A stretch of 64,000 nucleotides of DNA, from positions 544 through 64,543 of the forward strand of contig CALBRZ010000083.1 of assembly GCA_937927735.1 (NCBI GenBank), in the 5' to 3' direction. The DNA comes from an uncultured Planctomycetales bacterium (GTDB taxonomy: Bacteria; Planctomycetota; Planctomycetia; Pirellulales; S012-138). The position numbers were made by a program, and so were the translations under genes. Under the pieces are notes generated by a model. The model was not told the DNA's origin and ran no database searches. It saw only the letters and a program-made list of their open reading frames with translations. Of the stretch, positions 10,471 to 64,000 are shown piece by piece (the stretch's first letter is position 1; the number at the start of each line of letters is the position of its first letter).

Positions 10471-10505
10471 GCTCGTGATGATGCGACGCGGCCAAGGTTC
10501 CGCGC

Positions 10506-10554
10506 AAAAATTTAGGCCGACTCCAGCCCGCCATGATAGCGGGCGAGTCGGCCT
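10506..10554 (-). terminator. rho-independent terminator of the histone-like gene
   Basis: On the minus strand, a 10-bp stem AGGCCGACTC/GAGTCGGCCT with an inner hairpin, followed by AAATTTTTG. Lies 60 nt after the stop at 10614. Confidence 0.7.
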
Positions 10555-10613
10555 CTCTCGCTGTATCGTGTCATGCGGCCGCAGAGCGGGCGGCCGAAGG
10601 GTTCCGCCTAAAG

Positions 10614-18169: not shown

Positions 18170-18269
18170 ACGCTCGAGGCCGCTATGGGCCTGCTCGTTG
18201 AGCCAATCCCACGTTAGCCCCCCCCTGTTGAATCATTCTGGCATCGTTCGAAACCTGAAAGTGATCGCA

Positions 18270-44499: not shown

Positions 44500-44983
44500 T
44501 CGTGATAACTCATGCCTCAGGGCGCCCCCCCTGGAACTGAGTTTACGGACCATGCGGCGCAGCGGCCGCAAAATCCGCGTAGTTCATCAATTCGGCATGT
44601 TGAAACCGTGGCTAGAGAAAAGCCTTGCGGATTTTGCAAACTTTGACGGCACCCGATAGCAGCAAGCGGCCGCTATCAGCGCCAGCTTTTGCCCGGTGGA
44701 GACGCAACGAACCTCGGCTCGCCAGTTCCCGAGGACGTGGGGAGCACGTTGGGCTGAAAAGATTGCAGACGCCAGGTCATGCCAGCACAGTGGCTGAGCA
44801 ACGATCGTTTGCAGCAGCACGACCAGAATTCGCCCAGGATGAGGCAGTTTTCGCCCCGACTGGGTTTGCCTCGCGGCGGCCGTTGGCATATCGTTTGCCG
44901 CTCTTTATGCACTTCGCCCGCATCGCCGCCGCCATTGCTCCTGCTATCGCCGGCATGCGTTCAACACATGCAAGGGGTCACTG

Positions 44984-45160: not shown

Positions 45161-45315
45161 TGGCGATTTTGCTCGGGTGAATGAACCTGCCCCGCCATCG
45201 CGGCCCGGCCGCCTGGCTCGTTCCCAAGATTTCGCCGCTACGCTACACTGCGCCGCGCGTGCTTGCTTTATCCAGCGACACCGTCGCAGCGCTCATAGGA
45301 TGGGGGGAACGAGCA

Positions 45316-47967: not shown

Positions 47968-49488
47968 ATGCGTAGTGTTGCTGGCTTGTTGGTATGCGCG
48001 GTGCTGACCGCGCCTGGGACGTCGGGGATTGCCCGCGCTGAAGTGTGCGGCTCGCCCGCCTGCGAAGTCTATCCGACGCAGACGTACCGCCTGGTGTGCG
48101 AAACCGTTTACGACGAGCGCCCCGTCACGTGCTACCGGCTCGAAACCGAAACGGTGTACGAGCAGCAGCAGGTGACCTGCTACCGCAATGTCTGGGAAAC
48201 GGAGATGCGGGAGCGGCGCTACACGGTGCAGCGCCCCGTCTACGAAACCCACGAGCGCGAGGAACGGTACACCGTCCAGCGTCCGGTGTGGGAAACCCGG
48301 ATGCGGACCGTGAACGTCAATCGCGTCCGCAATGTGATCGAAACGCACGAGCGTGAAGAACGGTACGTGGTGCAACGCCCGGTGACCGAAACGCACGTTC
48401 GTGAAGAACGCTTCTACGTGCAGCGCCCGGTGCTGGAAACGGCCGAACGCGAAGAGTGCTACACGGTGCTGCGTCCGCAGGTGACGTATCGCAACGTGAC
48501 GGTCGACAACGGCTGCTGGGAACAGCAGCAGGTGTTGCGGCCCGGTCCGGTCAAAACGCGGCTGCGCTGGGTGCCCGGCGGCTGCGAGGTGGACCCGGTC
48601 ACTGGTCGTTCGTACTACCGTGGCGGCGGCCTGGCCTGGGTGCAGCAGCCTTGCCCGCCCACGGTTGAAGTCCAGCAGGTGTGGCGGCCCAACGTGCAAA
48701 CCTTCCAGGTGCCGCAGACGGTGATGGTGCCGCAAACCGAGCGCCGCGTGGTGCAATACCAGGTGCAGCGGATGGTCACCGAGGAACAGGTTCGCCAGGT
48801 GCCGTACCAGGTGTGCCGCATGGTGGCCGAAGAACACGTGCGGCGCGTGCCCTACCAGGTTTGCCGCCAGGTGGTGGAAACCTGCCAGCAGCAGATCCCC
48901 GAGCGGGTTTGCCGCATGGTGACCGAGGAGCACGTGCGGCGCGTGCCATACACCACCTGCCGCCTGGTGTGCGAGGAACGCGTGGAGCAGATCCCGGTTC
49001 GCACCTGCCGCCGCGTGGCCGTGCAGCAAACGATCCAGGTGCCCCGGCAAGTGGTGCGCCGCGTGCCGGTCACCTACACGCTGCGTGTGCCGCGGGTGAT
49101 CGTGCATCGGATCCCGATCGATCCCTGCACGGGCGCCGACCTGACGGTTCCGGCCGCCCCGTCGACCAGTGCCTCGCAAGCGGATACGCCGCTGACTCCG
49201 ATTCCGGAAGCGCAGTCGGACCTGCTGCAGCCGACGCCCGCCCCGCAAACCCAGCAGGGCGCGCCGCGGACCTTTGCTCCGCAGTCGGAAGCGCAGCCGA
49301 CCCCGATGCCGCAGCCTCAGCCGGCACCCTTGCCGCAGCCGCGGACCCAACCGGCGCCGATCCGGCCCGAGCCGGAAACGCCCCAGCCGCGGATCGAGCC
49401 GGGCGAGGCTGTCCGCGAGCCGAACGTGAACGCCACGTTCCGTTCGACGTTCTCGCCGCTGGTGCCGGTGAGCTACCACAACGGTTAA
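47968..49488 (+). CDS. secreted Cys-rich repeat protein (YTV-type repeats)
   Basis: Signal peptide MRSVAGLLVCAVLTAPGTSGIARA. Tandem ~13-16-aa units REERYTVQRPVxET (about 48205-48480) and EEHVRRVPYQVCRxV (about 48760-49010). Pro/Gln-rich tail. The plus strand is preferred over the equal-length antisense ORF. Confidence 0.8.
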   Translation: MRSVAGLLVCAVLTAPGTSGIARAEVCGSPACEVYPTQTYRLVCETVYDERPVTCYRLETETVYEQQQVTCYRNVWETEMRERRYTVQRPVYETHEREERYTVQRPVWETRMRTVNVNRVRNVIETHEREERYVVQRPVTETHVREERFYVQRPVLETAEREECYTVLRPQVTYRNVTVDNGCWEQQQVLRPGPVKTRLRWVPGGCEVDPVTGRSYYRGGGLAWVQQPCPPTVEVQQVWRPNVQTFQVPQTVMVPQTERRVVQYQVQRMVTEEQVRQVPYQVCRMVAEEHVRRVPYQVCRQVVETCQQQIPERVCRMVTEEHVRRVPYTTCRLVCEERVEQIPVRTCRRVAVQQTIQVPRQVVRRVPVTYTLRVPRVIVHRIPIDPCTGADLTVPAAPSTSASQADTPLTPIPEAQSDLLQPTPAPQTQQGAPRTFAPQSEAQPTPMPQPQPAPLPQPRTQPAPIRPEPETPQPRIEPGEAVREPNVNATFRSTFSPLVPVSYHNG

Positions 49489-49735: not shown

Positions 49736-50344
49736 TTACTTGGCCGCGGCGTAACGCCGGGCAACTTCGTCCCAGTTGATCACGTTGAAGAATGCGTTGA
49801 TGTACTCAGGCCGCCGGTTCTGGTACTTCAGGTAATAGGCGTGTTCCCACACATCCAGGCCCAGGATCGGGGTGTGGCCATGCATCAGCGGCGTGTCCTG
49901 GTTGGGCGTGCTCTCGATGTGCAGGTTCTTGTTGCCGTCCAGGCACAGCCAGGCCCAGCCGCTGCCGAAGCGGTTGGCGGCCGCGTCGCTGAACTGTTCC
50001 TTGAACTTCTCGAAGCTGCCGAAGGTCGCGTTGATGGCTGCGGCCAGTTCGCCCTTTGGTTCGCCACCGCCGTTGGGGCTCATGATGGTCCAGAACAACG
50101 AGTGGTTGGCGTGGCCGCCGCCGTTGTTCCGCACCGCGGTGCGAATGTTCTCAGGCACCGTGTCGATCTTGGCCATCAGCTCCTCGATCGGCAGATTGCC
50201 CAGGTCGGTGTTCTCGATCGCCGCGTTCAGCTTCGCCACGTAGGTCGCATGATGCTTGTCGTGATGGATCTCCATCGTCTTGGCATCAATGTGCGGCTCC
50301 AGGGCGTCGAAGGCGTAAGGCAGGTCCGGAAGGGTATAAGCCAT
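49736..50344 (-). CDS. sodA: superoxide dismutase (Mn type by sequence)
   Basis: [33 protein letters not shown] and NQD...DVWEHAYY. The GGGHxNHS plus late Gln pattern favours Mn over Fe. Confidence 0.9.
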
Positions 50345-50839
50345 GTCTGTTTCTCCTGGTCAAGGTTGGCCCGGATGACAGCCGCGGGCCGAACGCACAA
50401 GAATCATCGTTTCCGTCCAGCGCGGAGGAAACGCCCGCCGCTGCTGAATCGCGAATCGGGTACACGCCCAGCACTGCGGCCGGCGTGCCACTGGCCGAGG
50501 CCAGCGCCAACAGCCTGCCGCTGCGGCATTAGGGCGATCGTACGCTGCCCGGTGCGCGGCCTGCTGCTCGCTTGACATTGCTCGACATGCGAATGTGGAA
50601 CATACCCAATTCGGCGCGCGCTGGCAATTCGCCTGAAGGGCCAATCAAAAACCCTCGCACCGCACCAATCGATGCTCTAAGCAAGGCCGATGCCAGGGGG
50701 AAACCTGCTCCCGTCGCCCGCACCAGGCCTGCGGGATACGATCTAACAGGCGGGAACGTTGACGTTGACTAGCGCGGGGCGGCGCTACGGTTGGCAGCGG
50801 CCGCAGCCGGAGTTCCCGTCGTCACGTCACCCCAGGTTT

Positions 50840-52828
50840 ATGATGAGCAACGAGCGACTTGAAAGTGGTCTGTTGCCAAGCGGAGCACACGACGCGCACG
50901 CTTCGGTCCCCGTTGTTCCCAGCGACGAGCCTGCGCGGTTAGAGCTGTCGGCCGAAGCCATGCGGGCGATGGGCTATCAGGTGATCGATCAACTGGTCGA
51001 ACGCTTTGTGAAGCTGCCCGAGAAGCCGGCCACGCGCATCGTCCCACGGCCGGTCTTGAAGGAGAAACTGTCGGCTCCGCCGCCGGAAGAACCCGAGCCG
51101 TGGGGCCGCATTCTCCAGCAGACCCAAGATGACGTGATGACGGCTGTGGGGCTTACCACGCATCCCCGCTTTGCGTTCGTGCCGAGCCCCAGCAACTTCG
51201 TCAGTGTGATGGCCGATTGCCTGGCGGCTGGCTTCAACATCTTCGGCGGCAACTGGTTGGAGGGGGCCGGCCCCTGCCAGGTGGAACGCACGGTCATCGA
51301 CTGGATGCGCGCCTGGTGCGGCATGCCGGAATCCACCGGTGGCGTGCTGGTTAGCGGTGGCTCACAGGCCAACCTGACGGCGCTGGCGACCGCCCGGCAT
51401 GTGAAGCTCCGCAACGAAGTGTCCCGCGGCGTGGCCTACGGCTCGGACCAGTGCCACTCGTCGCTGCTGCGAGGCTTTCGCGTGCTGGGCTTTTCCCAGG
51501 ATCAGTTCGTCCGGCTTCCGTCCGACGAGCATTTCCGGCTGCCGGTCGAGGCCTTACGCGCCCGAGTGGCGGAAGATCGTGCTCGCGGTTTGCACCCGTT
51601 TTGCGTGGTGGCCAACGCCGGCACAACAAATACCGGTGCGGTTGATCCCCTGGACGAACTGGCCGACTTCTGCCAGCAAGAGGGGCTCTGGCTGCATGCC
51701 GACGGCGCGTACGGCGCCGCGGCCGTTCTTTCGCCAGCCGGCCGCGAGGCCTTGCGAGGCATCGAGCGGGTGGATTCGCTGACCATCGACCCGCACAAAT
51801 GGCTGTTCCAGCCCTACGAGTGCGGCTGCGTGCTGGTCCGCGATTGGCAACACCTGTTCGGGGCGTTTCAGGTCACGGCCGAGTATCTGGCCGATGCCCT
51901 GCGGATCAGCGAGGACGTGAACTTCCAGGACCTGGGCATCCAGCTCACCCGGTCATTCCGCGCCCTGAAGCTGTGGATGTCGATCCGGTTCTTCGGGCTG
52001 GCGGCGTTCCGCGAGGCAATTACCCGGGGCATCGAACTGGCCCAGCAGGCGGAACAGATCGTGCGCGAAACCCAGGGGCTGCATCTGTTCACACCGGCTC
52101 AGTTGGGCATCTTGACCTTTTATTACGCGGAACCGGAGCACGACTTGGCCGCGGCCAATGAGCTGAATCAACGGATTGTGAACCGGGTCTTGGACGAGGC
52201 GTTTGCCACCGTGACGTCGACGATGCTTCGCGACCGCCGCGTTTTGCGGATGTGCATCATCAACCCCCGCACGACGGTGGACGACCTGCGTCAAACTGTC
52301 GCACGTCTGGCACAGTTCGGACGTGAGGAATCCCAGCGGACGAGGGGGGCAGATAGCTCATCTTCCTTGCATTCCGCAAGTTTTCAGCGACTTTCGCTGG
52401 ATGATGACACCTCTTGTTGGACGGAGCGACAGGTGGGGGGCACCTTCGAGCGGTTCGCGTCCCCCGCTGGCTGCGGAATAGCAAGCATCCACGGTCGTTG
52501 CTATCTTGCGATTGCCGTGAGTGCCGCCGTGCGTGGCTTGCCGCGGGCCAGAGACCGTGCCCCGTGCCATGTTCCACCCGAAGGGGTGTGGCAATTTGCC
52601 GCACCCTGCCAGGGGGCTTGTCTGGGGCGCCCCATCGTGTACAAAGGGCGCTTGACACTTGGCCGGGGGGTCTACGAGTCGCCTCGCTTGCAAACTTTCG
52701 TGCAAGCGCAATGGTTTCTGGTCTTATCGGGCGCGTGCGTTGTCGAGTGCAGGTCTGATGTTGCGCTCGCTTTTCAGCGAGCGACCAAGCACCAAGAGTC
52801 GACACAATGGCCGAGAAAAAGAAGTTGA
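50840..52828 (+). CDS. PLP-dependent group II (aromatic-amino-acid-type) decarboxylase with an unexplained C-terminal extension
   Basis: Start re-called at MMSNERLE. Motifs HPRFFAF-like HPRFAFVPSP, SGGSQANL and DPHKWLFQPYECG (PLP Lys). The recognisable domain ends near 52330, but the frame stays open to 52828. Confidence 0.85.
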   Translation: MMSNERLESGLLPSGAHDAHASVPVVPSDEPARLELSAEAMRAMGYQVIDQLVERFVKLPEKPATRIVPRPVLKEKLSAPPPEEPEPWGRILQQTQDDVMTAVGLTTHPRFAFVPSPSNFVSVMADCLAAGFNIFGGNWLEGAGPCQVERTVIDWMRAWCGMPESTGGVLVSGGSQANLTALATARHVKLRNEVSRGVAYGSDQCHSSLLRGFRVLGFSQDQFVRLPSDEHFRLPVEALRARVAEDRARGLHPFCVVANAGTTNTGAVDPLDELADFCQQEGLWLHADGAYGAAAVLSPAGREALRGIERVDSLTIDPHKWLFQPYECGCVLVRDWQHLFGAFQVTAEYLADALRISEDVNFQDLGIQLTRSFRALKLWMSIRFFGLAAFREAITRGIELAQQAEQIVRETQGLHLFTPAQLGILTFYYAEPEHDLAAANELNQRIVNRVLDEAFATVTSTMLRDRRVLRMCIINPRTTVDDLRQTVARLAQFGREESQRTRGADSSSSLHSASFQRLSLDDDTSCWTERQVGGTFERFASPAGCGIASIHGRCYLAIAVSAAVRGLPRARDRAPCHVPPEGVWQFAAPCQGACLGRPIVYKGRLTLGRGVYESPRLQTFVQAQWFLVLSGACVVECRSDVALAFQRATKHQESTQWPRKRS

Positions 52829-54057
52829 CCACTGCCGAGATCCTGGCGGCCGCGCGCAAGCTGGACTCTAAGGGGTCGCAGGGGTCAGAAACAACGCCCC
52901 CCGAATCTCCGCCACCTTCTCCCCCGACGGAAGCTGCGGCCAGTTCTTCCTCCGGTGAGTCTACCCCTGCAGCGGCCGATGCTCCCCAGCCGGCTGCCAC
53001 GCCCAGCTCCAGTGGCGGAAAACTCACTACGGCCGAGATTCTGGCCCTGGCCCGAGCCGGCAAAGCCGGCGGTGCCAAGCCGGCGGCAGCGGCCGAGACG
53101 CCTGCCCAGGAGCCGGCAACCCCGGCAAATCCGGCAAATCCGGCGAGTTCATCCGGTGGTCGGCCCAGCGTTCAGGAGATCCTGGCGATGGCCCGGGCCG
53201 GCAAAGGTGGCCAGCAACCTCCTGCCGAGCCGGCGGCCGAGCCGCCCGCTACACAACCCTCTGCGGCCAAGCCAACCGCCGCCAAACCGGAACCGGCAGC
53301 CTCGCAGGCCGAGGAAGTTCCGGCTGGTCCGCCCAAGACGGCAAGCATCCTGGCGGCGGCCCGGGCGGAAAAGAAACGCGGGCCCTTGAGCAAAGCCGAG
53401 GCCGGCTTGCTGCCCGGCCATGATGAATCGCGCATCGAAGAGGCGATTCCGCGTCCGGCCAAGCCGGTCGTGCCGCCTATGCCCGCCAAACCGGCGTATG
53501 CGCAAAAGAAGCCCGAGGGCGCTCAGCCCAAGGTCGACGAAGGCCGCCGCGGCGTGTTGGCGATGCTCAGTGCGATGGTCGGCACCTCGCTGGGGATAGG
53601 CTTTGGCGCGTTGGCCGGCACCGCGGGGTTGTGGTCGCTGGGGCTGGCTCGTTACATGTTCCCCAACATCCTGACGGAGCCGCCCAGCCAGTTTAAGGTG
53701 GGGCAGCCGTCGGACTTTCCGCCGGGTATGGTGGACGAGCGGTTCAAGGCGGCCTTTGGCGTGTGGATCGTCAACGCCGAGTACAACGGCCAGCAGATGA
53801 TCTACGCTTTGAAGACCGTCTGCACGCACCTGGGCTGCACGCCCAACTGGTTGGAAAGCGAGCAGAAGTTCAAATGCCCCTGCCACGGCAGCGGCTTTTA
53901 CATTGATGGGATCAACTTCGAGGGGCCGGCGCCCCGCCCCCTGGAACGGTACGCGATTCGAATCGCCGACGACGGCCAGTTGGAGATCGACAAGAGCCGC
54001 GTCTTCCAGGAAGAAAAGGGCGAGTGGACCAACCCCGACAGCTATGTGATCGTCTGA
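52807..54057 (+). CDS. Rieske [2Fe-2S] subunit of a cytochrome bc-type complex, with a 245-aa N-terminal extension
   Basis: CTHLGC...CPCHGSGF cluster-binding boxes. A twin-arginine EGRRGVL followed by the TM helix AMLSAMVGTSLGIGFGALAG at residues ~247-275. Ala/Pro-rich repeat-bearing N-terminus. Confidence 0.9.
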   Translation: MAEKKKLTTAEILAAARKLDSKGSQGSETTPPESPPPSPPTEAAASSSSGESTPAAADAPQPAATPSSSGGKLTTAEILALARAGKAGGAKPAAAAETPAQEPATPANPANPASSSGGRPSVQEILAMARAGKGGQQPPAEPAAEPPATQPSAAKPTAAKPEPAASQAEEVPAGPPKTASILAAARAEKKRGPLSKAEAGLLPGHDESRIEEAIPRPAKPVVPPMPAKPAYAQKKPEGAQPKVDEGRRGVLAMLSAMVGTSLGIGFGALAGTAGLWSLGLARYMFPNILTEPPSQFKVGQPSDFPPGMVDERFKAAFGVWIVNAEYNGQQMIYALKTVCTHLGCTPNWLESEQKFKCPCHGSGFYIDGINFEGPAPRPLERYAIRIADDGQLEIDKSRVFQEEKGEWTNPDSYVIV

Positions 54058-54250
54058 GGTGGGGGGGCCGCCGGCCTCCGTGCCAGTCAAGCTCGAGCAG
54101 ATCGCGCGAGGTGGTTCGCCGCGTCGAGCTTGCGCCGGCAAGTTGACCGACGGTGGGCCGAAGCGTTGCGATAAACGCCGGCCGGGTCGCGCCGCAGTAC
54201 CGCCCACGCACGACCGTTGACTGAATCCTTCCAATCGTTAGGGAACGCCG

Positions 54251-55027
54251 ATGCCGTCAATTGGCGAAACGGTACGCAACAGCCAGATCTGGAAGAGTAT
54301 CTTCCGTCACCCGATGCCGCTGGATCGGCGCAATCGCATCGTGGTGATGCTGACCAACTTCTTCCTGCACCTGCACCCGGTTTCGATCAAGAAGCAGGGC
54401 ATCGCGCTGAGCTACACCTGGTGCATGGGCGGGGTGACGTTCTTCCTGTTTCTGGTGGAGACCGTCACCGGCGTGCTGCTGATGTTCTATTACCGGCCGA
54501 CGCTCCAATGGGCGTTCACCGATATCCAGGCTTTGCGCGACGTCACCAGCCTGGGCATTCTCCGCGAGCTGCATCGCTGGGGGGCCCATGCCATGGTGAT
54601 TACCGTCTGGTTGCACATGTACCGGGTGTTCTTGACCGGCAGTTACAAACCTCCGCGAGAATTCAACTGGGTCGTGGGGGTGATCCTGTTGTTATTAACG
54701 CTGTTGTTGTCGTTCACCGGCTACTTGCTGCCGTGGGACCAGTTGGCCATATGGGCCATCACGGTGGGCTCCAATATGGCCCGGGCGACTCCCTTCTTAG
54801 GCAGCGAAGGCCCCGGCCAGCAGTTGCTGTCCATCGGCGGCATCGACATGATCACCAGTGCCTCGGACGCGCGGTTCGGCCTCTTGGGGGCACGGTTTGT
54901 CGGTGAAGAAACGCTGAACCGGTTTTACGTGCTGCACTGCATCGCAATTCCCCTGGCGGTGGCGATGCTCTTGGCGATTCACTTTTGGCGAGTGCGGAAG
55001 GACGGCGGGATCAGCGGTCCGCTGTAA
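54251..55027 (+). CDS. cytochrome b6-type subunit (N-terminal four-helix half of cytochrome b)
   Basis: [60 protein letters not shown] and AIWAITVG are classic cyt b/b6 heme-ligand and Qo-region helices. Confidence 0.92.
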
Positions 55028-55165
55028 GGCCCCCCCGGCGAACCTGGGAGGAGTGCAGGCCGCGCGCGGACCGGCCGGGATGGCACGTGCGAAGCGGAAC
55101 GAACTGGGACGTTGCGGCAAGGATGGCCCCTTGGCTAGCCGAGGCGGCCGTTTCCAGCCGGCACA

Positions 55166-56509
55166 ATGGATGAACATATGCATGGCGCGTCGTTAGACTT
55201 CGTCGACAAGGCCTCCTCCTTCCTGGGCCCCTACTACATTACGATGGCCGCGCTCAACGCGGTGGTGGCCGGGGTGCTGCAGTTCCGGTTGCAGCGCAGC
55301 GGCCTGGCCCTGGGCTGCCTGATCGCCACGATCGCCTTTGTCATCCTGGGGGCGTTCGCATGGTCGGGCTCGCTACCTGGGCTGGGGCACAATACCGAGC
55401 ATCTGATCAACTCGCTCTTGAGCGGGAACCGCGGCGCGGTGGTCTACACCGTGGGCACGGCGGTTGGCCTGGCGGTGCTGTATTGGTTCCGCCGCTTCTT
55501 CGTGCAGCCGGTGGTGGCCTACATCGGGTTCAACCTGGTGATGCTGCTGCTGGGGTTGTCGATGACCAACCCCAATTTCTGGGAGATCGTCGCCAAGCCC
55601 GACAACGTACCGATCGTGATGCTCGTGCTGCTGCTGGGCTTTTTCACCTGGTTGGCCACGTGGAAAGCCGTGCAGAACGACGATCGGGCCCGGCAGGGCC
55701 TGCCGCCGCTGGAATCGCTCGATAACGAGAAAGTGCTGGTGTGGCCCGACCTGGTCTACACCGAGCTGATCTGCATGGTGCTGCTGACGGCGCTGCTGTT
55801 GGTTTGGGCCATCGTGCTCAAGGCGCCGCTGGAAGAACCGGCCAGCGCGGTCAAAACGCCTAACCCCTCCAAGGCCCCGTGGTACTTCCTGGGGCTGCAA
55901 GAAATGCTCGTGTACTACGATCCCTGGATGGCCGGCGTGGTGCTGCCCAGCTTGGTGATCGTGGGGTTGATGGCGATTCCCTACCTGGACTTCAACAAGG
56001 AAGGCAACGGCTACTACACGATCGAGAAACGCAAGTTCGCGTACCTGACCTTCCAGATCGGCTTTCTGCTGCTGTGGGTCACGTTGATCGTGCTGGGCAC
56101 CTTCCTGCGAGGGCCCAACTGGAGCTTCTTCGGCCCATTTGAGTACTGGGATCCCCATAAGGTCGAGGCCCAGAACAACGTCAACCTCTCGGACTACTTC
56201 TGGATCAACCTGATGGGGGCCAGCGTGCCGAGGGTGACCAGCGACATGGGCACGGCGGAATCGCTGTGGATGATCCTCAAACGCGAAGGGCTGGGGATCG
56301 TCCTGGTGCTGGGCTACTTCCTGTTCTTGCCGCCCGTGCTGGCGGCCACGGTCCTGCGGCCGTTTTTCATCCGGATGGGCTTCATCCGTTACATGGTGAT
56401 GGCCATTTTGCTGCTGTTCATGGCGGCCCTGCCGATCAAGATGCTGCTCCGCTGGACCTTGAACCTGAAGTACATCGTCAGCATCCCGGAGTACTTTTTC
56501 AACATTTAG
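55166..56509 (+). CDS. cytochrome b C-terminal / subunit IV-like protein, expanded (447 aa, about 10 TM helices)
   Basis: PSKAPWYFLGLQEMLVYY (the PEWYF-type motif of cyt b C-terminal domain/PetD), flanked by extra N- and C-terminal hydrophobic helices. Confidence 0.85.
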   Translation: MDEHMHGASLDFVDKASSFLGPYYITMAALNAVVAGVLQFRLQRSGLALGCLIATIAFVILGAFAWSGSLPGLGHNTEHLINSLLSGNRGAVVYTVGTAVGLAVLYWFRRFFVQPVVAYIGFNLVMLLLGLSMTNPNFWEIVAKPDNVPIVMLVLLLGFFTWLATWKAVQNDDRARQGLPPLESLDNEKVLVWPDLVYTELICMVLLTALLLVWAIVLKAPLEEPASAVKTPNPSKAPWYFLGLQEMLVYYDPWMAGVVLPSLVIVGLMAIPYLDFNKEGNGYYTIEKRKFAYLTFQIGFLLLWVTLIVLGTFLRGPNWSFFGPFEYWDPHKVEAQNNVNLSDYFWINLMGASVPRVTSDMGTAESLWMILKREGLGIVLVLGYFLFLPPVLAATVLRPFFIRMGFIRYMVMAILLLFMAALPIKMLLRWTLNLKYIVSIPEYFFNI

Positions 56510-56578
56510 CCGCGACCCGTTTCGCACACCGGTCGCCGATACCGCTCACAGGCTCCGCGATTGCTCCGGAGAGGGCAA

Positions 56579-59500
56579 ATGCCTGCTACAGAACAAACTT
56601 GGCGCGACATCAAGAAAGTCCACCTGTTCTTTGGAATTTCCTCCGTGGCCATGCTGGCCGCCACGGTGTGGATGATCGCTGACGACCATAACCGCGAGTG
56701 GAAGACCTACCAGGAGCAGTATTACGGCCAGTTGGAAGTCTGGACGCTCCAGTCGCGGATCTACGAACAACTGGCGGGTGATTACGTCACCGGTGAGGAA
56801 GTGCGCGAACACGTCGTGCGCGAGGTGAGCGCGCAGCCGCCCGAGCCCGCTTTCGGCAAGCTGTTCATGCTGTACGTGGCGCAGCGCGCGCAACCTCGCG
56901 ATGGCGAAGCCGTGGAACTGGTCAGCTTCAAGGCGAACGCCGATGCGCGGGGCAAGCTGCCCGAGGCGGGCGCCGCCGAGGAACGTTTTTACCAGGTGAA
57001 CGAAGCGGCCCTGGCCGCGGCGGCCCTGTACGACCAGTTGGCTCAGCTTTCGGTCAGTTTGCAGATCGATCGGGCGACCCTCGAACGCGTTACGGATCCG
57101 CAGCGCAAGAAGGTGTTGCAGGGTCAGATCCAGGCCGCCGAAAAGCGGCTGGAAATCGTCAACCAGCAGGTGACCGAGCAGCTGGCTTCACTGCGGCCGC
57201 AGATCGATCAGACACTCACCCACTACTGGAAGAACGTCCCCGGCGACACACAGCAGTTGCTCGCCGCGATTGATTCGTCGCTGAATGCCGCGGTGGAAGC
57301 GCCATCGCCCGAACGCCGAGCGCAGTTCGTGCGCGAGCTTGAGGCCGTGATCAAACAGGCCTTGTTTCGCGAAGAGGTGCTGCAGCGCGATCTGAAGTTC
57401 CGCCGGGCTGACCTGGACGAGGCCCGCAGCGCATTCAACCTGGCCTTCGGCAACGACGCCCCGGCCGCCGAGTTGCGTGAGTTGCAGGCCAACGTCGACG
57501 CCATCAGCGCCGAGGTCAACGATCTGAACAGCCGGTACGAGTCGGCCAAAACCTATCGCGAACGGCTGGAACGTGCCCGCAACGCGGTCAACGCGCCGGT
57601 GGGCTATGCGGAGCAGAACCTCGAGCGGTATCGCATGGACATGAACCGGCTGGAGGAGCAGTTGGCCAAGAGCCGGCCCAATGTCGGCAAGAAGCTGCTC
57701 AACATGCCGATTCTGGACGCCTTCAGCAAGGAAGGCGACATCAAGGTGCGGCAGATCTGGCTGCCGGATCTGACGATCGACTTCAACTTCCAGGACGTGG
57801 CCCGGTTCGACCGCTGCATGACCTGCCACGTGGGCATCGAGAAGACGGCGCCCGGCTCGGCTGTTGCCGCCGGTTATCCGCATGAGCACGTGCTGGATGG
57901 CGTGCAGCTCAAGACGCCGGCCGAACCGCCAACCTTGGACAGCGGGCAAGAAGGCGATGAAACGGCCGATGCCACGATCATCATTCCCAGCGAGCTGTCC
58001 AACGAGCAACAGAATCGCCTGTTGCTCCAGGCGTACGGCTTCCGATTGGCCGATCGCGGCGTGTTCAATGCCAACGATGCGACCATCGAGTTTGTGATGG
58101 ATCGCAGCTTTGCTGCCGACGCGCTGTTGCAACGCGGCGACGTGCTGGTGGCGATCGGCGGCAAGGACGTGTGGTCGCGTCAGGACGCCGTCGACCTGCT
58201 GCTGGGCGTGGTCAAGTGGGGCGAGCCACTGGAACTGAAGGTCCGCCGCGGCGTCCCGCATCCCTACAGCACGCACCCGCGGTTCGAGCTGTTCGGGGCT
58301 TCGACCAGTCCTCACCCGTTTGCCACGGTAGGCTGCACAATTTGCCACGATGGCCAGGGTAGCGCCACGGCGTTCAAGTGGGCCTCGCACTCGCCCAACT
58401 CGGTCGAACAGCTCCAGCAATGGACCAAGAAGTACGGCTGGTTCTACAACCACCACTGGATCTTTCCGATGATGCCCAAGCGGTTCTCGGAAAGCCTATG
58501 CCTCAAGTGCCATCACGACGTGGTGGAGTTGTTGCCCAGCGAGCGGTTCCCCGAGCCGCCGGCACCCAAGCTGATGCAGGGCTACAACCTGGTTCGCGAG
58601 TACGGCTGCTTCGGCTGCCACGAGATCAAGGGCTATGACAGCCCCACGCGGAGCATCGGTCCCGACATGCGGCTGGAGCCTGGCTACACACCCGCGGCTC
58701 TGGCCCTGTATGCCGATCCGGAACTCTATCGCAATGAAACCTACCGTCGCGATCATCCCGAGAGCTACGAGCAGCGCCTCCAGCAACTGTTCGGTCCCGG
58801 CGTGACCGTGGGCCAGGACGGCAAGCCGGTGTACAAGCCGGACGCGGTTCCGCAAGGCTTCTCGGCTGAGGAAGCCAACGCGGGCTTGGCGAAGTTCACC
58901 CAGAATCTGCAAGATCTGGCCGGACGCGTGGTGCGCGATCCATCGAACGATACCGCACGGCGCCGGCTGGTGCAGCTTCTGAAAGAGGACGAAGCCCGGG
59001 CCAAGAACGCCATTTCGCCCGAGCCGGCTTACCTCAGCAGCCAGCATCATCGCCTGGCGTTGGTGTTGGCCGACGTTGAGGTGCCCGGCAAGATGCGCCC
59101 GGTCGGCCCGAGCCTCCGCTATGTCTCCAGCAAGCTCTCCAAGGAGTTTGTCTACAACTGGATTCGCAATCCGCGCGAGTACCAGCCCAAGACGCGGATG
59201 CCGCGGTTTTTCGGTCTGTATGACCACCTGCTCTCCGAAGAGAAGGAAGAGGGCGAGGCCTACGGCGAAACGCTCCAGGAGCCGTACCACACCGAGAAGC
59301 TGGAGCAGATCGAGATTCGGGCGATCACCGAGTATCTGCTGACCTCCAGCCAGCCGTTCATCCATGCGACTAAGCCGGCCGAGGTGACCGAGGCTCCGGA
59401 TGCGGAACGCGGCAAGAACTTCTTTGCCGATCGCGGCTGCCTGGCCTGCCACCAGCACAGCGAGTTTCCGGATCAAGAGCTGACGGCCGACCAGGGGCCG

Positions 59501-61570
59501 AACCTCTCGAACATCGGCAACAAGCTCCGGGCTGGCGGCGAGGAAGCGGCCGAGAAGGGCGCCCGCTGGCTGTATAGCTGGTTGAAGAACCCGGCGCACT
59601 ACTCGCACCGGACCAAGATGCCCAACATGCTGTTGGAGCCGGTAAAGGAAGCCGACGGCAAGGTGGTCGATCCGGCGGCCGACATCGCGCTGTTTTTGAT
59701 GAACTCGACCAACGCCTGGGAGCCGGCGCCGCTGCCGCAGATCGACCAGGATGCGCTGTACAACCTGGCCCTGGGGCACCTCCAGGGCGTTTTCACCCGG
59801 CAGCAGGCCGAGCAGTATCTCCAGACCGGCATTCCGCTGAACCTGGCCAACGAGATCAAGGGCGATGAAGCCGAACTGCTTGGCACGTTCAAAGACGAAA
59901 CTGACCGCGTGAATCGGTTGCTGCGGTTCGTCGGTGCCCGGTCCGTACGCAAGTACGGCTGCTTCGGCTGCCACGACATCCCCGGCATGGAAACGGCCAA
60001 GCCGATCGGTACCGGCCTGGCCGACTGGGGACGCAAGGAGCCTTCGAAGATCGCCTTCAACCAGATCGGTCAGTACATCAAGCACTCCGATCCCGACGTG
60101 GTGATCACCGGCCCGGATGGCCAGCCGCAATTGGACCTGGAAGGTTTAAAGGATAAGGACAAGGCGTTCTTCATCCACGCCCTGCTCTCGCATCATCGCG
60201 AAGGGTTCTTGTGGCAGAAGCTGCGCGCTCCGCGGAGCTTCGACTACGAGATGACGCAGAACATGCGTTACGACGAACGGCTGCGGATGCCGCAGTTCCC
60301 GTTCACTGAAGAAGAACGCGAAGCGGTGATGACCTTCATCCTGGGGTTGGTTGCCGAGCCGCCGGCCGACCAGTTCGTGTACTCGCCTGATCCGCGGCAG
60401 AAGGCCATCAACGAAGGCCGCAAGGTGCTGGAGCAGTACAACTGCGGTGGCTGCCATACCCTGGAGATGCCCAAGTTTACGTTCACCTTCACGCCCGACT
60501 CGCTGCTGTACTCGCGGCAACCGCCGCCGGCACCGGACGATTACCTCGAGTTGTTCCAGCCGCACTTCACGCCCGAGCAGATCGAGCGATCGAAGCAGCT
60601 CGACAAGCGAGGGCTGGGGACGGCCACGATCACGGCCAAACGCAGCGTCGACCCGGCGCAAAAGGGCGTGGCGTGGGAGTCGGAGGACGACGACGGCAAT
60701 ATCATCCACCTCTACACGCTGTGGGAGGATGCGCTGGTCAACGGCAACTACTGGCTCGCCGGGGATAAGACCTTCCCGATCTATCCCGAGTCGATGGTGC
60801 CGGGGCCGGGCATTCCCAGCCAGCCTGAGCTGGGCGGCATGTTCGCCAACTGGCTGTATCCGCGCGTGGTCAATCAGCGCAATCCCAAGGACCTTGATAG
60901 CGCCTGGGGGTACGTGCCGCCGCCGCTGGTGGGCGAGGGCAACAAGGTGCAGCCGGGCTGGCTGTACGACTTCCTGCGGGAGCCGTACGTGATTCGTCCG
61001 GCGGTGGTGCTGCGGATGCCCAAGTTCAACCTGTCGCCGCAGGAGGTCGAGGCCCTGGTGAACTACTTCGCGGCCAAGGACAACGCGACGTATCCGTACG
61101 AGTACTACGATCGCCGCAATCCGCTGGAGCTCTCGGCCAAGGAACTGGCGTACGCCGACCGGCTGAGCGACGCCCTCAAGATCGTCACCAACCGCAACTA
61201 CTGCGTGGCTTGCCACAGCGTGGGCGACTTTACGCCCGAGGGCGGCGTCGATGCCCTGGCGCCCAACCTCGACCAGGTGCACAATCGTCTGCGGCCTGAC
61301 TACCTGCACAAGTGGATCGCCAATCCCAAGCACATCTTGCCCTACACGGCCATGTTCGCCGTGATCAAACCCAATGAGCCGATCCGGCCGGACAAGTTCC
61401 AGGGCGAGGTGGGCAAGCTGATCCAGGAAGGCACCAGCACGGAGCAGGTCGATGCCGTGGTGGATCTGCTCTTGAACTACGACCAGTACATGATGAGGCA
61501 GGTGCCGATCAAACCCATGATTCAGGGATCGCCGCCTGCCAATCTGGCACCAGCAGAAGACGACGAGTAA
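56579..61570 (+). CDS. giant membrane-anchored octaheme c-type cytochrome (1663 aa)
   Basis: GGAGAGGG precedes the ATG at 56579. N-terminal TM helix VHLFFGISSVAMLAATVWMI. Eight in-frame CxxCH motifs: 57815-57829 CMTCH, 58334-58348 CTICH, 58499-58513 CLKCH, 58607-58621 CFGCH, 59438-59452 CLACH, 59960-59974 CFGCH, 60443-60457 CGGCH, 61202-61216 CVACH. Confidence 0.9.
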   Translation: MPATEQTWRDIKKVHLFFGISSVAMLAATVWMIADDHNREWKTYQEQYYGQLEVWTLQSRIYEQLAGDYVTGEEVREHVVREVSAQPPEPAFGKLFMLYVAQRAQPRDGEAVELVSFKANADARGKLPEAGAAEERFYQVNEAALAAAALYDQLAQLSVSLQIDRATLERVTDPQRKKVLQGQIQAAEKRLEIVNQQVTEQLASLRPQIDQTLTHYWKNVPGDTQQLLAAIDSSLNAAVEAPSPERRAQFVRELEAVIKQALFREEVLQRDLKFRRADLDEARSAFNLAFGNDAPAAELRELQANVDAISAEVNDLNSRYESAKTYRERLERARNAVNAPVGYAEQNLERYRMDMNRLEEQLAKSRPNVGKKLLNMPILDAFSKEGDIKVRQIWLPDLTIDFNFQDVARFDRCMTCHVGIEKTAPGSAVAAGYPHEHVLDGVQLKTPAEPPTLDSGQEGDETADATIIIPSELSNEQQNRLLLQAYGFRLADRGVFNANDATIEFVMDRSFAADALLQRGDVLVAIGGKDVWSRQDAVDLLLGVVKWGEPLELKVRRGVPHPYSTHPRFELFGASTSPHPFATVGCTICHDGQGSATAFKWASHSPNSVEQLQQWTKKYGWFYNHHWIFPMMPKRFSESLCLKCHHDVVELLPSERFPEPPAPKLMQGYNLVREYGCFGCHEIKGYDSPTRSIGPDMRLEPGYTPAALALYADPELYRNETYRRDHPESYEQRLQQLFGPGVTVGQDGKPVYKPDAVPQGFSAEEANAGLAKFTQNLQDLAGRVVRDPSNDTARRRLVQLLKEDEARAKNAISPEPAYLSSQHHRLALVLADVEVPGKMRPVGPSLRYVSSKLSKEFVYNWIRNPREYQPKTRMPRFFGLYDHLLSEEKEEGEAYGETLQEPYHTEKLEQIEIRAITEYLLTSSQPFIHATKPAEVTEAPDAERGKNFFADRGCLACHQHSEFPDQELTADQGPNLSNIGNKLRAGGEEAAEKGARWLYSWLKNPAHYSHRTKMPNMLLEPVKEADGKVVDPAADIALFLMNSTNAWEPAPLPQIDQDALYNLALGHLQGVFTRQQAEQYLQTGIPLNLANEIKGDEAELLGTFKDETDRVNRLLRFVGARSVRKYGCFGCHDIPGMETAKPIGTGLADWGRKEPSKIAFNQIGQYIKHSDPDVVITGPDGQPQLDLEGLKDKDKAFFIHALLSHHREGFLWQKLRAPRSFDYEMTQNMRYDERLRMPQFPFTEEEREAVMTFILGLVAEPPADQFVYSPDPRQKAINEGRKVLEQYNCGGCHTLEMPKFTFTFTPDSLLYSRQPPPAPDDYLELFQPHFTPEQIERSKQLDKRGLGTATITAKRSVDPAQKGVAWESEDDDGNIIHLYTLWEDALVNGNYWLAGDKTFPIYPESMVPGPGIPSQPELGGMFANWLYPRVVNQRNPKDLDSAWGYVPPPLVGEGNKVQPGWLYDFLREPYVIRPAVVLRMPKFNLSPQEVEALVNYFAAKDNATYPYEYYDRRNPLELSAKELAYADRLSDALKIVTNRNYCVACHSVGDFTPEGGVDALAPNLDQVHNRLRPDYLHKWIANPKHILPYTAMFAVIKPNEPIRPDKFQGEVGKLIQEGTSTEQVDAVVDLLLNYDQYMMRQVPIKPMIQGSPPANLAPAEDDE

Positions 61571-61953
61571 TCGCCGATCGGCGCGCGCTCCGGATGGGGT
61601 AGCGCCCGGATAAGTGATTGGGGCTTTGGGGACGAGGGGTTCCAAACCTGTGACAAAATGCCGCAGGTTTGGGGCCCGGCGGTTCCGGTATCATGGAATG
61701 CGTCCTGACCTTGGGCACGTCAGGCACCCGAACCAACAAGACAGAGGGGGGCGCGAACCAGCGCTTCGGGGCTTATAATGTCCGGTTTGACCGCAAGGTG
61801 CGGTCGACGGTCCCCCCTAGCGGGCTGACTCCACTGGCCGGAGTGGCCGACGGGGGCGTGCCGAACTGGACTGGATTCGCCCAGGGAACAGGGGCGAGAG
61901 CCCTTTGGCAGGGCGCCGCGACGGCGTGCGGTGCCGCTGTTGGGAGAGAACGT

Positions 61954-62733
61954 ATGTTGCAGACGCGTTGGAGTTCGTTGTTCGCCTTGGCTGTCGCCCC
62001 GGCCATTGCCTGGCTGGGCTCGTCGCTGGCCGTGGCCGCTGAATGGGCCGATCTGACCGGCAAGTTTGTGTACGACGGCAAGCCGCCCGTGCCCAAGCCT
62101 GTCGAGATCACCAAGGATCAGGAGGCCTTCGGCAACCTCGGCCTGGTCGATGAATCGCTGCTGGTGTCCAAGGACGGCGGCATTGCCAACGTGGTCATTT
62201 ACGTCCGCACCCGCGATGTCGACATCCATCCCGACATCGAGAAGAACATCCCCAAGGAAGTGAAGTTCGACAACGTGGGCGGCCGCTTCGTGCCGCACAT
62301 CCTGCCGGTGTGGCTGGATAAGCAGAAGGTGATTCTGCACAACTCCGACCCCGTCCCTCACAACGCCAACGTGCAGCCGCTGGGCGACGAGGGCAAGAAT
62401 CCGCTGCTGCCCCCCAACACGGGCGTTGATCACAAGTTCAACCGCCAGCAACTGATTCCGGTGCCGGTGGCCTGCAATATCCACCCCTGGATGCGCGGCT
62501 TCATCCTGCCCCGCAACAACCCCTACACCGCCGTGACCGCCGAAGACGGCACCTTCACTTTGGAGAAGCTGCCGGCGGGCACCGAGTTGGAGTTCCAGGT
62601 GTGGCACGAGAAAGCCGGTTATCTGGATCCCAACGGTGAATGGGCCCGCGGCCGGTTCACCATGACCCTCAAGCCGGGCAAGAACGACCTGGGCACGATC
62701 CGCGTCGATCCGTCCGTGTTTGAGAAGAACTAA
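61954..62733 (+). CDS. secreted cupredoxin-like protein (amicyanin-type Cys-x2-His-x2-Met loop) with a C-terminal beta-sandwich
   Basis: Start re-called at MLQTRWSSLFALAVAPAIAWLGSSLAVAAE (signal peptide), with GGGAGAGAA upstream. Candidate type-1 Cu ligands: H in NSDPVPHNANV, then CNIHPWM. C-terminal TAEDGTFTLEKLPAGTELEFQVWHE. Confidence 0.75.
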   Translation: MLQTRWSSLFALAVAPAIAWLGSSLAVAAEWADLTGKFVYDGKPPVPKPVEITKDQEAFGNLGLVDESLLVSKDGGIANVVIYVRTRDVDIHPDIEKNIPKEVKFDNVGGRFVPHILPVWLDKQKVILHNSDPVPHNANVQPLGDEGKNPLLPPNTGVDHKFNRQQLIPVPVACNIHPWMRGFILPRNNPYTAVTAEDGTFTLEKLPAGTELEFQVWHEKAGYLDPNGEWARGRFTMTLKPGKNDLGTIRVDPSVFEKN

Positions 62734-62756
62734 GTACATGTTCGTGGATCATGAGC

Positions 62757-62784
62757 AGCCAGGCGGCCGGCTGGCCGCCTGGCT
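62757..62784 (+). terminator. perfect 12-bp hairpin between the two cupredoxin paralogs
   Basis: AGCCAGGCGGCC-ggct-GGCCGCCTGGCT, 24 nt after the stop. No T-run, so it could be a terminator, an attenuator or an RNA-stability element. Confidence 0.45.
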
Positions 62785-63020
62785 GACTCGAAACCACGCG
62801 TTGAATATGGAATCGGCCAGCGCCGGACCGGCAGTGCGCCCCGGGCCGTGCAAGGGCCGTAGCTACCCAACCTTGCCGAGACACTAGAGAGCCGACGATC
62901 GCAGCGCGCACTTTTCTTCCTCGCGTGTGCTGACACCTGGCGGGGCCTGCGATGACCGCTGCCGGGGACCACACTCGCCAGGAATCGTCTGTTGGACCCG
63001 AACCGTTGGAGGCGGTTGCC

Positions 63021-63917
63021 ATGCGATGCCCTAGCCTGATGCTTGTTACCTGTGCCGCGCTCCTGACGACGGCCGTGGGCTGTGGCGACTCGTCCAGCGA
63101 TCGAGGGCCCCGGGCCAAGCCCGAGGTGGTGCAGAACCTGCGGGCACGCAACCAGGCCGGCAGCGCCGCCGGCCAGTCTGGCGGCAGCAGCATGGACCAG
63201 GCTGACGGCTGGGGTACCATCCGCGGCCGCTTTGTCTACGGCGGTCAGCCTCCCGCCCGGCCACCGCTCTCGGTGACCAAGGACGTTCAGTTCTGCGGCC
63301 AGCACCGCGTGCTCGATGAGTCGCTGGTGGTCGGCCCCGATGGCGGCGTGAAGAACGTCGTCGTGTTCCTCCGCACCCGCGATCCCAAGGTTCACGAATC
63401 GTACGCCGAGAAGATCAAGCAGCCGGTGGTCTTCGACAACCGCGATTGCCGCTTTGAGCCGCACGTGCTGCTGGTCCATACCTCGCAACCGGTGGAGATC
63501 CTCAACTCCGATCCGGTTGGCCATAACACCAGCGTCCAGTTCCAACGCAACCCGTCATTCAGCCAGGGCGTGGCCTCGAACCAGCGGGTGGTGCAGAAGA
63601 TGGACGTGGCGGAGACCTTGCCGGCTCCGGCGGCCTGCAATGTCCATCCCTGGATGGGCGGCTGGATCGTGGTCAAAGACAACCCCTACATGGCCGTGAC
63701 CGACGAGAACGGCAACTTCGTGATCGAGAACGTTCCGGCCGGCGTGGAACTGGAGTTCCAGGTCTGGCATGAACGCGGCGCCGGGAACCAAGGTTCCGTC
63801 GATGGCACGGGTTCCGTCACCAATGTCGATCGCGGCCGGTTCAAGGTCACCGTTCCCAAGGACGGTGAAGTGGATCTTAAGGATATCACCCTGCCGCCGT
63901 CGTCGTTCCGTTCGTAG
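63021..63917 (+). CDS. cupredoxin-like lipoprotein, paralog of 61954-62733
   Basis: Start re-called at MRCPSLMLVTCAALLTTAVGC (lipobox), with GGAGG 8 nt upstream. Same ligand pattern: NSDPVGHNTSV and CNVHPWM. C-terminal TDENGNFVIENVPAGVELEFQVWHE. Confidence 0.75.
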   Translation: MRCPSLMLVTCAALLTTAVGCGDSSSDRGPRAKPEVVQNLRARNQAGSAAGQSGGSSMDQADGWGTIRGRFVYGGQPPARPPLSVTKDVQFCGQHRVLDESLVVGPDGGVKNVVVFLRTRDPKVHESYAEKIKQPVVFDNRDCRFEPHVLLVHTSQPVEILNSDPVGHNTSVQFQRNPSFSQGVASNQRVVQKMDVAETLPAPAACNVHPWMGGWIVVKDNPYMAVTDENGNFVIENVPAGVELEFQVWHERGAGNQGSVDGTGSVTNVDRGRFKVTVPKDGEVDLKDITLPPSSFRS

Positions 63918-64000
63918 ACCGTCGCGCGGGGAGCAGGGCAGGACAGGGCACGGCCGCCGGATCACCGCCGACCATTCTGCCGCTTCGTTTGCCATGGACG

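Follow-up and report, generated by a model that had tools for sequence, protein, structure and literature searches.

A conserved, uncharacterised planctomycete gene cluster predicted to carry electrons from quinol to oxygen through an octahaem cytochrome c and paired cupredoxins

We analysed a 64,000-nucleotide (nt) stretch of DNA from an uncultured Planctomycetales bacterium (contig CALBRZ010000083.1; the whole stretch is referred to here as the window), in which six genes between positions 52807 and 63917 encode a Rieske protein, a cytochrome b6-type subunit, an enlarged subunit IV homologue, an octahaem cytochrome c, and two cupredoxins (cup1 and cup2). These genes are the front half of a quinol-to-O2 cluster of ~20 kb that is conserved and uncharacterised in planctomycetes. 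We consider it probable that they form the quinol-oxidising half of a menaquinol-to-O2 chain peculiar to Pirellulales and related Planctomycetota, with the whole chain encoded in this one cluster. The predicted core is a b6-type Rieske/cytochrome b complex. Its cytochrome b6 has four helices, two b haems, and the haem cn cysteine; the other two subunits are a Rieske [2Fe-2S] protein and a subunit IV with the quinol oxidation (Qo) motif. A membrane-anchored octahaem cytochrome replaces cytochrome f or c1. The features of the cluster within the window are the following (aa, amino acids; TM, transmembrane; ORF, open reading frame).

52807-54057, + strand: Rieske iron-sulfur subunit, 416 aa; PF00355 and PetC/Rieske NCBIfam matches
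52807-53541, + strand: N-terminal extension of the Rieske protein (aa 1-245); four short repeats upstream of the twin-arginine translocation (Tat) motif
54251-55027, + strand: cytochrome b6-type subunit, 258 aa, 4 TM helices; PF00033, E = 1.6e-41
55166-56509, + strand: enlarged subunit IV, 447 aa from the first ATG; PF00032/PetD match over aa 192-305 only
56579-61570, + strand: octahaem c-type cytochrome, 1663 aa; eight CXXCH motifs, one N-terminal TM helix, Pfam matches
58034-58252, + strand: PDZ-like insertion between haems 1 and 2 (aa ~492-564 of the 1669-aa ORF)
61571-61953, + strand: non-coding spacer of 383 nt between the cytochrome c gene and cup1, aligned with loci L002 and L001
61954-62733, + strand: cup1, secreted two-domain blue-copper protein, 259 aa; P0039 is 100% identical
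63021-63917, + strand: cup2, lipoprotein paralogue, 298 aa; exact product recorded on 19 contigs

All six ORFs lie on the + strand in one orientation, at the positions given in a preliminary description of this DNA. That description had also ended the cluster at 63917, which did not hold. The stop codon of cup2 is 83 nt from the window edge, and the cluster runs on past it. A Logan contig from the same organism (L010), 99.76% identical to window positions 53030 to 64000, continues after cup2 with genes for a 447-aa dihaem cytochrome c, COX2, and COX1. Because the window stops in the middle of the cluster and this 99.8%-identical contig runs on into oxidase genes, the six genes are placed in its front half. 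Intergenic gaps, measured between raw ORF ends, are 51 to 218 nt. In a promoter/terminator scan, every terminator-like match on the + strand was intragenic, and the scan was otherwise uninformative; an Rfam scan of positions 50000 to 64000 returned no credible RNA.

The window was compared with loci L001 to L005 and L007 to L010; of these, L001 to L005 and L007 come from Pirellulales/Planctomycetota relatives, L008 and L009 hold more distant homologues, and L010 is from the same organism. Six of these loci (L001, L002, L003, L004, L005, and L007) have the order Rieske, b6, subunit IV, octahaem cytochrome c, cup (two or three copies), dihaem cytochrome c, COX2, and COX1, and their octahaem proteins are 35 to 82% identical to that of the window. 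Synteny elsewhere, on which the preliminary description had made its proposal depend, was borne out by the six related loci. In seven loci, the cup, dihaem cytochrome c, and cox genes share one orientation. Genes for CtaA and CtaB (haem A and haem O synthases) and COX3 are added in the loci that reach far enough (L001, L002, L004, and L005), and a COX4 gene is present in L005. The COX2 protein of L002 contains a CuA motif, and the dihaem cytochrome c of that locus has a lipobox. Three cup paralogues, two secreted and one a lipoprotein, are encoded in L005 (positions 9801 to 12446). In the earlier description, the cupredoxins were guessed to connect the complex with a terminal oxidase, and this oxidase synteny in the same organism and six relatives strongly supports the guess. 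From gene order, we infer a possible physical supercomplex of the quinol oxidase and the terminal oxidase. The most persistent link is the adjacency of the cytochrome c and cup genes, which is kept in relatives at ~30% identity (L008 and L009). Locus L008 has the cytochrome and cup genes only, and L009 has subunit IV, cytochrome, cup, and dihaem cytochrome c genes beside a URO-D (haem biosynthesis) gene.

Two observations concern single loci. In L005, a 65-aa lipoprotein ORF separates the first cup gene from the cytochrome c gene. In L004, the Rieske, b6, subunit IV, cytochrome c, cup, and cox matches are split over several frames; this looks like the frameshift errors of a metagenome-assembled genome and not like pseudogenes.

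The core proteins could be assigned from conserved motifs. The b6 protein aligns with the solved b6 chains 7r0w_I and 6rqf_I at E ~ 1e-44. All four of its predicted haem b ligands (H108, H122, H229, and H244) align with the haem histidines of these chains, and Cys58, within a TWCMGG motif, aligns with b6 Cys35 and is the putative attachment site of haem cn. The Rieske protein matches PF00355 over aa 296 to 382 (36.4 bits against a cut-off of 20.3) and contains both [2Fe-2S] boxes (CTHLGC and CPCHGS) in the CxH...CxxH arrangement. In subunit IV, the Qo motif is APWY (aa 237 to 240), and its four residues are invariant in 48 sequences. The hallmarks of the APWY clade of Rieske/cytochrome b complexes are an APWY Qo motif, a WCMGG haem ci motif, and a Rieske signature of S-F or S-Y (PMC4122944). 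Read against the same source, the Rieske signature here is S-F (CPCHGSGF), which belongs to the Mid+ class with a predicted potential of ~+260 mV. The TWCMGG, APWY, and CPCHGSGF motifs all match those listed, and the predicted core fits the APWY clade. Of the two parts of the earlier label "b6f/Firmicute-style split cytochrome b," the b6-type split therefore stands, and "Firmicute-style" gives way to the APWY clade (PMC4122944). This clade includes Planctomycetes, with no member characterised as of 2014 (Kao and Hunte 2014, PMC4122944). It corresponds approximately to group A2 of Baymann et al. 2012 (PMC3509893), in which Blastopirellula marina and Pirellula staleyi have split cytochromes b with the haem ci cysteine.

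The b6 protein is 89.5 to 99% identical across L001, L002, L005, and L007, and its N- and C-terminal stretches are nearly invariant where these were compared. The conserved elements include an N-terminal FFLHLHP (aa 38 to 42, containing His40/42) and a C-terminal WRVRK (containing Arg247). For Kuenenia cytochrome b, an extra b haem at the dimer interface has been proposed on the basis of AlphaFold3 models, with N-terminal His43 or His62 and the nearby Arg247 or Arg266/Lys267 (PMC12954380). His40/42 and Arg247 of the window protein are apparent counterparts of His43 and Arg247 of Kuste4571, a sequence correspondence that serves as a lead and not as a test. The b6 protein is 97 to 99% identical to those of L001 and L002, and the octahaem cytochrome is only 68 to 82% identical; evolutionary rates therefore differ strongly within one cluster.

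The Rieske gene is syntenic in L001, L002, L004, L005, and L007. Its product has an internal twin-arginine signal-anchor (RR 246-247) ahead of its sole TM helix (aa 250 to 268), and the [2Fe-2S] domain is predicted to be periplasmic. Residues 1 to 245 are predicted to stay in the cytoplasm, because they lie upstream of the Tat motif and of the only TM helix. The 245-aa cytoplasmic repeat extension described earlier was recovered here as four copies of [ST]xx[EDS]ILAxAR, joined by linkers rich in Pro, Ala, Glu, and Lys and placed upstream of RR 246-247 and the TM helix. The motif also occurs in L002, L005, and L007 and nowhere else in the window, and a Pfam search of the extension at E <= 10 gave no match. 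The repeats could be a docking or chaperone-binding module.

The subunit IV homologue had been described as a 447-aa protein with about 10 TM helices, and hydropathy, an AlphaFold2 (AF2) model, and the positive-inside rule agree in predicting ten. The predicted order is five extra N-terminal helices, the canonical helices E, F, and G, and two extra C-terminal helices. Homologues are called at 443 aa, equivalent to a start at ATG 55178. A predicted periplasmic loop, RGPNW..FGPFEYWDPHK (aa 315 to 332; window positions 56108 to 56161), is largely invariant in the 48 sequences. Within this loop, His331 is invariant, and the loop is a candidate interface or ligand site. At least 8000 relatives of the protein were scored; among the 120 listed, lengths range from 424 to 601 aa and nearly all are 431 to 464 aa. 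The protein contains no CXXCH motif and thus no fused C-terminal cytochrome c domain. A Foldseek search with the model returned nothing significant, the best matches (E ~1) being to cytochrome b chains.

For the octahaem cytochrome, the most likely start is ATG 56579, in agreement with P0001 and with an upstream GGAGAGGG site. With this start, the CXXCH count, and the TM helix, the earlier description of a TM-anchored eight-haem protein of 1663 aa is upheld. In this protein, a TM anchor with the N terminus inside comes first, followed by a helical/coiled-coil region of variable length, haem 1, and a PDZ-like domain. Haems 2 to 4 form a tri-haem block, which a variable linker connects to four class I-like domains (haems 5 to 8). 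The length variation falls at residues ~100 to 250, and Pfam searches of residues 1 to 412 gave only coiled-coil families below threshold. The PDZ-like insertion had also been noted before. PDZ_6 matches it at 24.3 bits (E = 2.5e-5), under the 27-bit gathering cut-off, and several homologues have precomputed PDZ matches (PF17820, PF13180, or PF00595), which together support the earlier assignment. No internal sequence repeats were found among the class I cytochrome domains, and the only PDB match in a sequence search with the octahaem protein was a weak one to SoxX. In a library clustered at 50% identity, 971 representatives match at E <= 1e-30, which makes this a large family.

The haem-binding features of the family are strongly conserved. 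Each of the 38 homologues that the first search returned contains exactly eight CXXCH motifs, and their spacing is fixed at 55 residues between haems 2 and 3 and at 36 residues between haems 3 and 4. Outside the CXXCH motifs, His566, His579, His604, and His646 are conserved in the region of haems 1 to 4. Met1014, Met1237, Met1480, and Met1592 are conserved in the four class I-like domains, and Met631 and Met874 are conserved as well. With four conserved His and at least four conserved Met residues, there is therefore one candidate distal ligand per haem. We read haems 1 to 4 as probably bis-His and haems 5 to 8 as probably His/Met, all of the electron transfer type, with no obvious catalytic haem.

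These ligands bear on an alternative in which the complex does not feed O2 respiration at all. As proposed for APWY-type complexes of anammox bacteria and Geobacter, it would run in reverse or bifurcate electrons, and the octahaem protein would be a catalytic or extracytoplasmic redox module. The combination of APWY with a mid-to-high-potential Rieske signature has been tied to reverse operation (PMC4122944), and the anammox relatives have octahaem partners with proposed non-canonical roles (PMC12954380). The best NCBIfam matches of the core, although below cut-off, are to ExtP and ExtQ of the Geobacter selenite/tellurite reduction operon. A catalytic role of the octahaem protein is countered by the conserved candidate distal ligand at each of the eight haems and by the lack of CXXCK or any other atypical haem motif in its sequence. 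Additionally, the ten loci (the window, L001 to L005, and L007 to L010) showed no gene for a catalytic partner such as an NAD(P) oxidoreductase. We favour forward, aerobic operation because the cluster is tightly joined to a complete A-type oxidase operon that includes the haem A synthesis genes, and we regard reverse or bifurcating operation as unlikely.

The two proteins after the octahaem cytochrome had been described as amicyanin-like paralogues, one soluble and one lipid-anchored, and signal sequences, fold, and mutual identity (42%) agree with this. The start of cup1 is ATG 61954, and its Sec signal ends with ...LAVA/AEW. An amicyanin-like cupredoxin domain (H136, C174, H177, and M180) is followed by a CarboxypepD_reg-like beta-sandwich. 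The start of cup2 is ATG 63021; a lipobox (TAVG/C) and a flexible linker of ~60 aa precede a cupredoxin domain and beta-sandwich like those of cup1, with the ligand motifs GHNTS and ACNVHPWM. Across the 46 members of the cup family, C174, H177, and N137 are invariant and H136 and M180 are at least 90% conserved; the CarboxypepD_reg-like C-terminal domain was detected in 35 of them. In an hhalign comparison with amicyanin, the cup ligands fall in register on H53, C92, H95, and M98. The preliminary description had let its copper assignment hang on such an alignment, and the His/Cys/His/Met set is conserved and in register.

The curated cupredoxin models PF00127 and PF13473 gave no match in the cup proteins of the window, with marginal Cupredoxin_1 matches in 2 of the 46 members, and a PDB sequence search with cup1 gave no match. 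The AF2 model of cup1 has a predicted local distance difference test (pLDDT) score of 92.7. Foldseek aligned this model with amicyanin at a TM-score of ~0.70 on the target (E = 1.5e-5) and returned 36 cupredoxin-type matches at E <= 1e-3, the top ranks being amicyanin, a Nitrosopumilus cupredoxin, NirK, CuA domains, pseudoazurin, and plastocyanin. By sequence and model, cup1 and cup2 are predicted type 1 copper cupredoxins, one free in the periplasm and one lipid-tethered.

In a different role, the cup proteins would carry no electrons and would instead supply copper to CuA or CuB of the downstream oxidase, as chaperones or assembly factors. Such a role would suit the position of the cup genes immediately 5' of the cox genes and a cluster in which Sco, PCuAC, and CtaG genes were not observed. 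PCuAC-type chaperones likewise have a cupredoxin-like fold. The ligand set, however, is that of a classical type 1 electron transfer site with a His-Asn pair and a short C-x2-H-x2-M loop. It is unlike the Met/His motif of PCuAC and the CxxxC...H motif of Sco. The nearest structures are redox cupredoxins, and the tightest linkage is to the octahaem cytochrome, which is kept even where no cox genes are adjacent (L008 and L009). On ligand chemistry, we down-weighted the chaperone role and consider it very unlikely.

The spacer before cup1 contains three conserved blocks. The first, CTGTGACAAAATGCCGCAG (61648 to 61666), is conserved with L002 and L001, and the second, TATAATG (61774 to 61780), is invariant in the window, L002, and L001. 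The third is a hairpin, GACCGC-AAGGT-GCGGTC (61789 to 61805), whose stem in L001 is altered on both sides with pairing kept. The spacer matched no Rfam family. Judged from these blocks, the cup, dihaem cytochrome, and cox genes may be served by an internal promoter here, together with an operator or regulator site and a 5' stem-loop. A 74-aa gene called in L010 between the cytochrome c gene and cup1 lies in this otherwise poorly conserved spacer and is probably spurious.

A promoter- or operator-like block conserved directly 5' of cup1 would also suit a chain made of the same parts in a looser arrangement. In this alternative, the cupredoxins and the dihaem cytochrome c are parallel carriers, switched by the supply of copper and iron, and form no fixed supercomplex. 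The model is the switching between plastocyanin and cytochrome c6. The number of cup paralogues, which differs by locus from one to three, points the same way, and a soluble paralogue fits a diffusible carrier. Against a switch, the cup and dihaem cytochrome c genes are both kept, on the same strand, in L001, L002, L003, L004, L005, L007, L009, and L010. A lipobox on one protein of each type (cup2 of the window and the dihaem cytochrome of L002) suggests short-range, ordered transfer. We treat parallel carriers as possible but not probable.

The path that we favour leads through the cluster from quinol to O2. The quinone is taken to be menaquinone from general knowledge of planctomycetes. Menaquinol would be oxidised at the APWY Qo site, and one electron would pass from the Rieske cluster to the four bis-His haems of the anchored cytochrome that lie nearest the membrane and then along its four His/Met class I domains. 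The next carriers, whether serial or parallel, would be the soluble and lipid-tethered cupredoxins and the lipoprotein dihaem cytochrome, from which CuA of the aa3-type oxidase would receive the electron for the reduction of O2. The second electron would be recycled in a Q cycle via bL, bH, and cn. The seven extra helices of subunit IV and the long helical arm of the cytochrome are probably the scaffold or interface of a fixed bc-oxidase assembly, and the cytoplasmic repeats of the Rieske protein would be an unexplained add-on. Part identities, conserved ligands, predicted topology, and gene order come directly from the sequences; carrier order, flow direction, association, and cofactor occupancy are our reading of them.

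Several points weigh against this path. The modules are separable, given that L008 and L009 have no adjacent Rieske, b6, or cox genes. The promoter-like block before cup1 suggests at least two transcription units. The AF2 model of subunit IV is of medium confidence (pLDDT 72). Bis-His haems are often of low potential and would be a poor fit downstream of a Rieske centre at ~+260 mV. That the genes are transcribed together, that their products assemble, that the copper and haem sites are filled, and that electrons flow in the direction given are predictions from sequence. Finally, APWY-type complexes have been proposed to run in reverse (Kao and Hunte 2014, PMC4122944).

A bolder version of the forward path can be imagined, which we hold to be doubtful. 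The main aerobic chain of Planctomycetia would be an obligate, self-contained mega-assembly. In it, electrons would leave a forward-running APWY-type b6 complex through an octahaem arm of >1,500 aa and reach an aa3 oxidase by way of tethered blue-copper proteins and a dihaem cytochrome with a lipid anchor. Contact with the oxidase would be made by the seven extra helices of subunit IV. Regulation or docking of a kind unseen in solved bc and b6f complexes would come from the cytoplasmic repeats of the Rieske protein and from an extra b haem that may sit between monomers (His40/42).

Outside the cluster, the gene upstream of the Rieske gene and some other genes of the window are the following.

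50759-52828: pyridoxal phosphate (PLP)-dependent decarboxylase, 689 aa; PF00282; overlaps the Rieske start codon by 22 nt
39988-44571, - strand: giant secretin, 1527 aa; six Secretin_N repeats and a Secretin domain
16269-17741, 18198-20357, 45181-47385, and 47968-49488: typical planctomycete genes of the types DUF1559/N-methyl pilin-like, G8/CEMIP beta-helix, S46 peptidase, and YTV-repeat protein, none respiratory

The PLP-dependent decarboxylase was considered as a cluster member and rejected. It is syntenic only in the closest two relatives, L001 and L002, and is probably unrelated to respiration. Because purD takes its place upstream in L005 and L007, the cluster is taken to begin on the left with the Rieske gene.

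Water, soil, and algae harbour abundant aerobic heterotrophs of the Pirellulales and related groups. A Pirellulales genome paper (PMC6995999) names a cytochrome bc1 complex and cytochrome c oxidases and says no more of their respiration. The cluster described here appears to be a widespread planctomycete route from quinol to O2, with at least 8000 subunit IV relatives and ~970 octahaem clusters at 50% identity, and it holds four protein types that lack functional annotation. It bears on how a Rieske protein hands electrons over to a multihaem wire, on the role of a ten-helix subunit IV, and on the use of haem and copper carriers within one chain. As a natural counter-example to the equation of an APWY Qo site with reverse operation, forward flow in this cluster would contradict that generalisation.

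Compared with known systems, the cluster shares with the cytochrome b6f complexes of cyanobacteria and chloroplasts separate b6 and subunit IV genes, a b6 protein in which all haem ligands and Cys35 are matched (E ~ 1e-44), a subunit IV core that aligns with PetD, a PetC-like Rieske protein, and, as predicted here, a cupredoxin acceptor (plastocyanin in b6f). It differs in having no cytochrome f; the only c-type subunit among the six genes is the octahaem protein, and Pfam and NCBIfam assign it to cytochrome c families other than cytochrome f. Against the ~160 aa and three helices of PetD, subunit IV has three times the size, APWY stands in place of PEWY, and the Rieske protein has its 245-aa cytoplasmic extension. 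Small Pet subunits were not found in the gaps checked: those flanking b6 and the cup genes contain no plausible, hydrophobic Pet-like ORF, and the 51-nt gap ahead of the cytochrome c gene is too short for one, although such genes may lie elsewhere in the genome. Unlike Firmicute QcrABC, no C-terminal cytochrome c domain is fused to subunit IV here.

The proposed assembly resembles the actinobacterial bcc-aa3 supercomplex (PDB 6adq, 6hwh, and 7rh5), in which a bc complex that oxidises menaquinol has a fixed connection to an aa3 oxidase through a multihaem membrane cytochrome c, in place of a soluble carrier, and the qcr and cta genes adjoin. The actinobacterial complex differs in its unsplit, long cytochrome b, dihaem cytochrome, and lack of cupredoxins, and it belongs to the PDWY clade. 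A blue-copper link between a Rieske/cytochrome b module or dehydrogenase and an oxidase or cytochrome is found in the Sulfolobus SoxM/sulfocyanin and Paracoccus amicyanin-cytochrome c551i chains. The C-x2-H-x2-M loop of the amicyanin type is shared with the cup proteins, and the hosts and subunits of those chains are unrelated. Compared with sulfocyanin and amicyanin, the cup proteins have an extra C-terminal prealbumin-like domain, and all Pfam cupredoxin models miss them.

The Geobacter Ext cluster provides the best NCBIfam matches for b6 (261.7 bits; cut-off, 290) and subunit IV (65.9 bits; cut-off, 150), namely ExtP and ExtQ, and a weak match to ExtS. However, it goes with anaerobic selenite/tellurite reduction and not with an oxidase. 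The split cytochrome b, WCMGG, APWY, Rieske S-F signature, and planctomycete host are shared with the APWY clade and group A2. The papers on these groups treat cytochrome b and Rieske proteins only, with seven helices in total according to Baymann et al. (PMC4122944, PMC3509893); the 10-TM subunit IV, the 1,300- to 2,000-aa octahaem partner, the cupredoxins, and the oxidase linkage are not in those two papers. Reverse operation as proposed for the APWY clade conflicts with the cox synteny found here. In a literature search, the 10-TM subunit IV, the octahaem family, the cupredoxin pair, and the oxidase linkage were undescribed, although an earlier mention of the gene order is possible. The cytochrome b/Rieske core is already catalogued, and the octahaem partner and enlarged subunit IV have anammox precedent. 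The accessory set and the oxidase linkage appear undescribed, and the novelty appears to lie there and not in the principle.

The closest described systems are Kuste4569-4574 and Kustd1480-1485 of Kuenenia stuttgartiensis (PMC12954380), which agree with the earlier remark that Rieske/cytochrome b complexes of anammox planctomycetes are known to have multihaem partners. They share with the window the phylum, a b6-like four-helix cytochrome b with haem cN, a separate, enlarged subunit IV, and the substitution of cytochrome f by a c-type cytochrome with six or eight haems, the octahaem proteins being likened by description. Kustd1485 is very large and has long helices, like the octahaem protein here. 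The Kuenenia clusters include a cytoplasmic NAD(P) oxidoreductase (FAD/FeS) subunit and an HAO-like protein, neither of which was seen here, and their subunit IV has 5 helices. The cluster of the window has 10 helices in subunit IV, together with cupredoxins and an aa3 oxidase, in an aerobic host lineage. It may thus provide an O2-respiring sister system against which the puzzling Rieske/cytochrome b complexes of anammox bacteria can be read.

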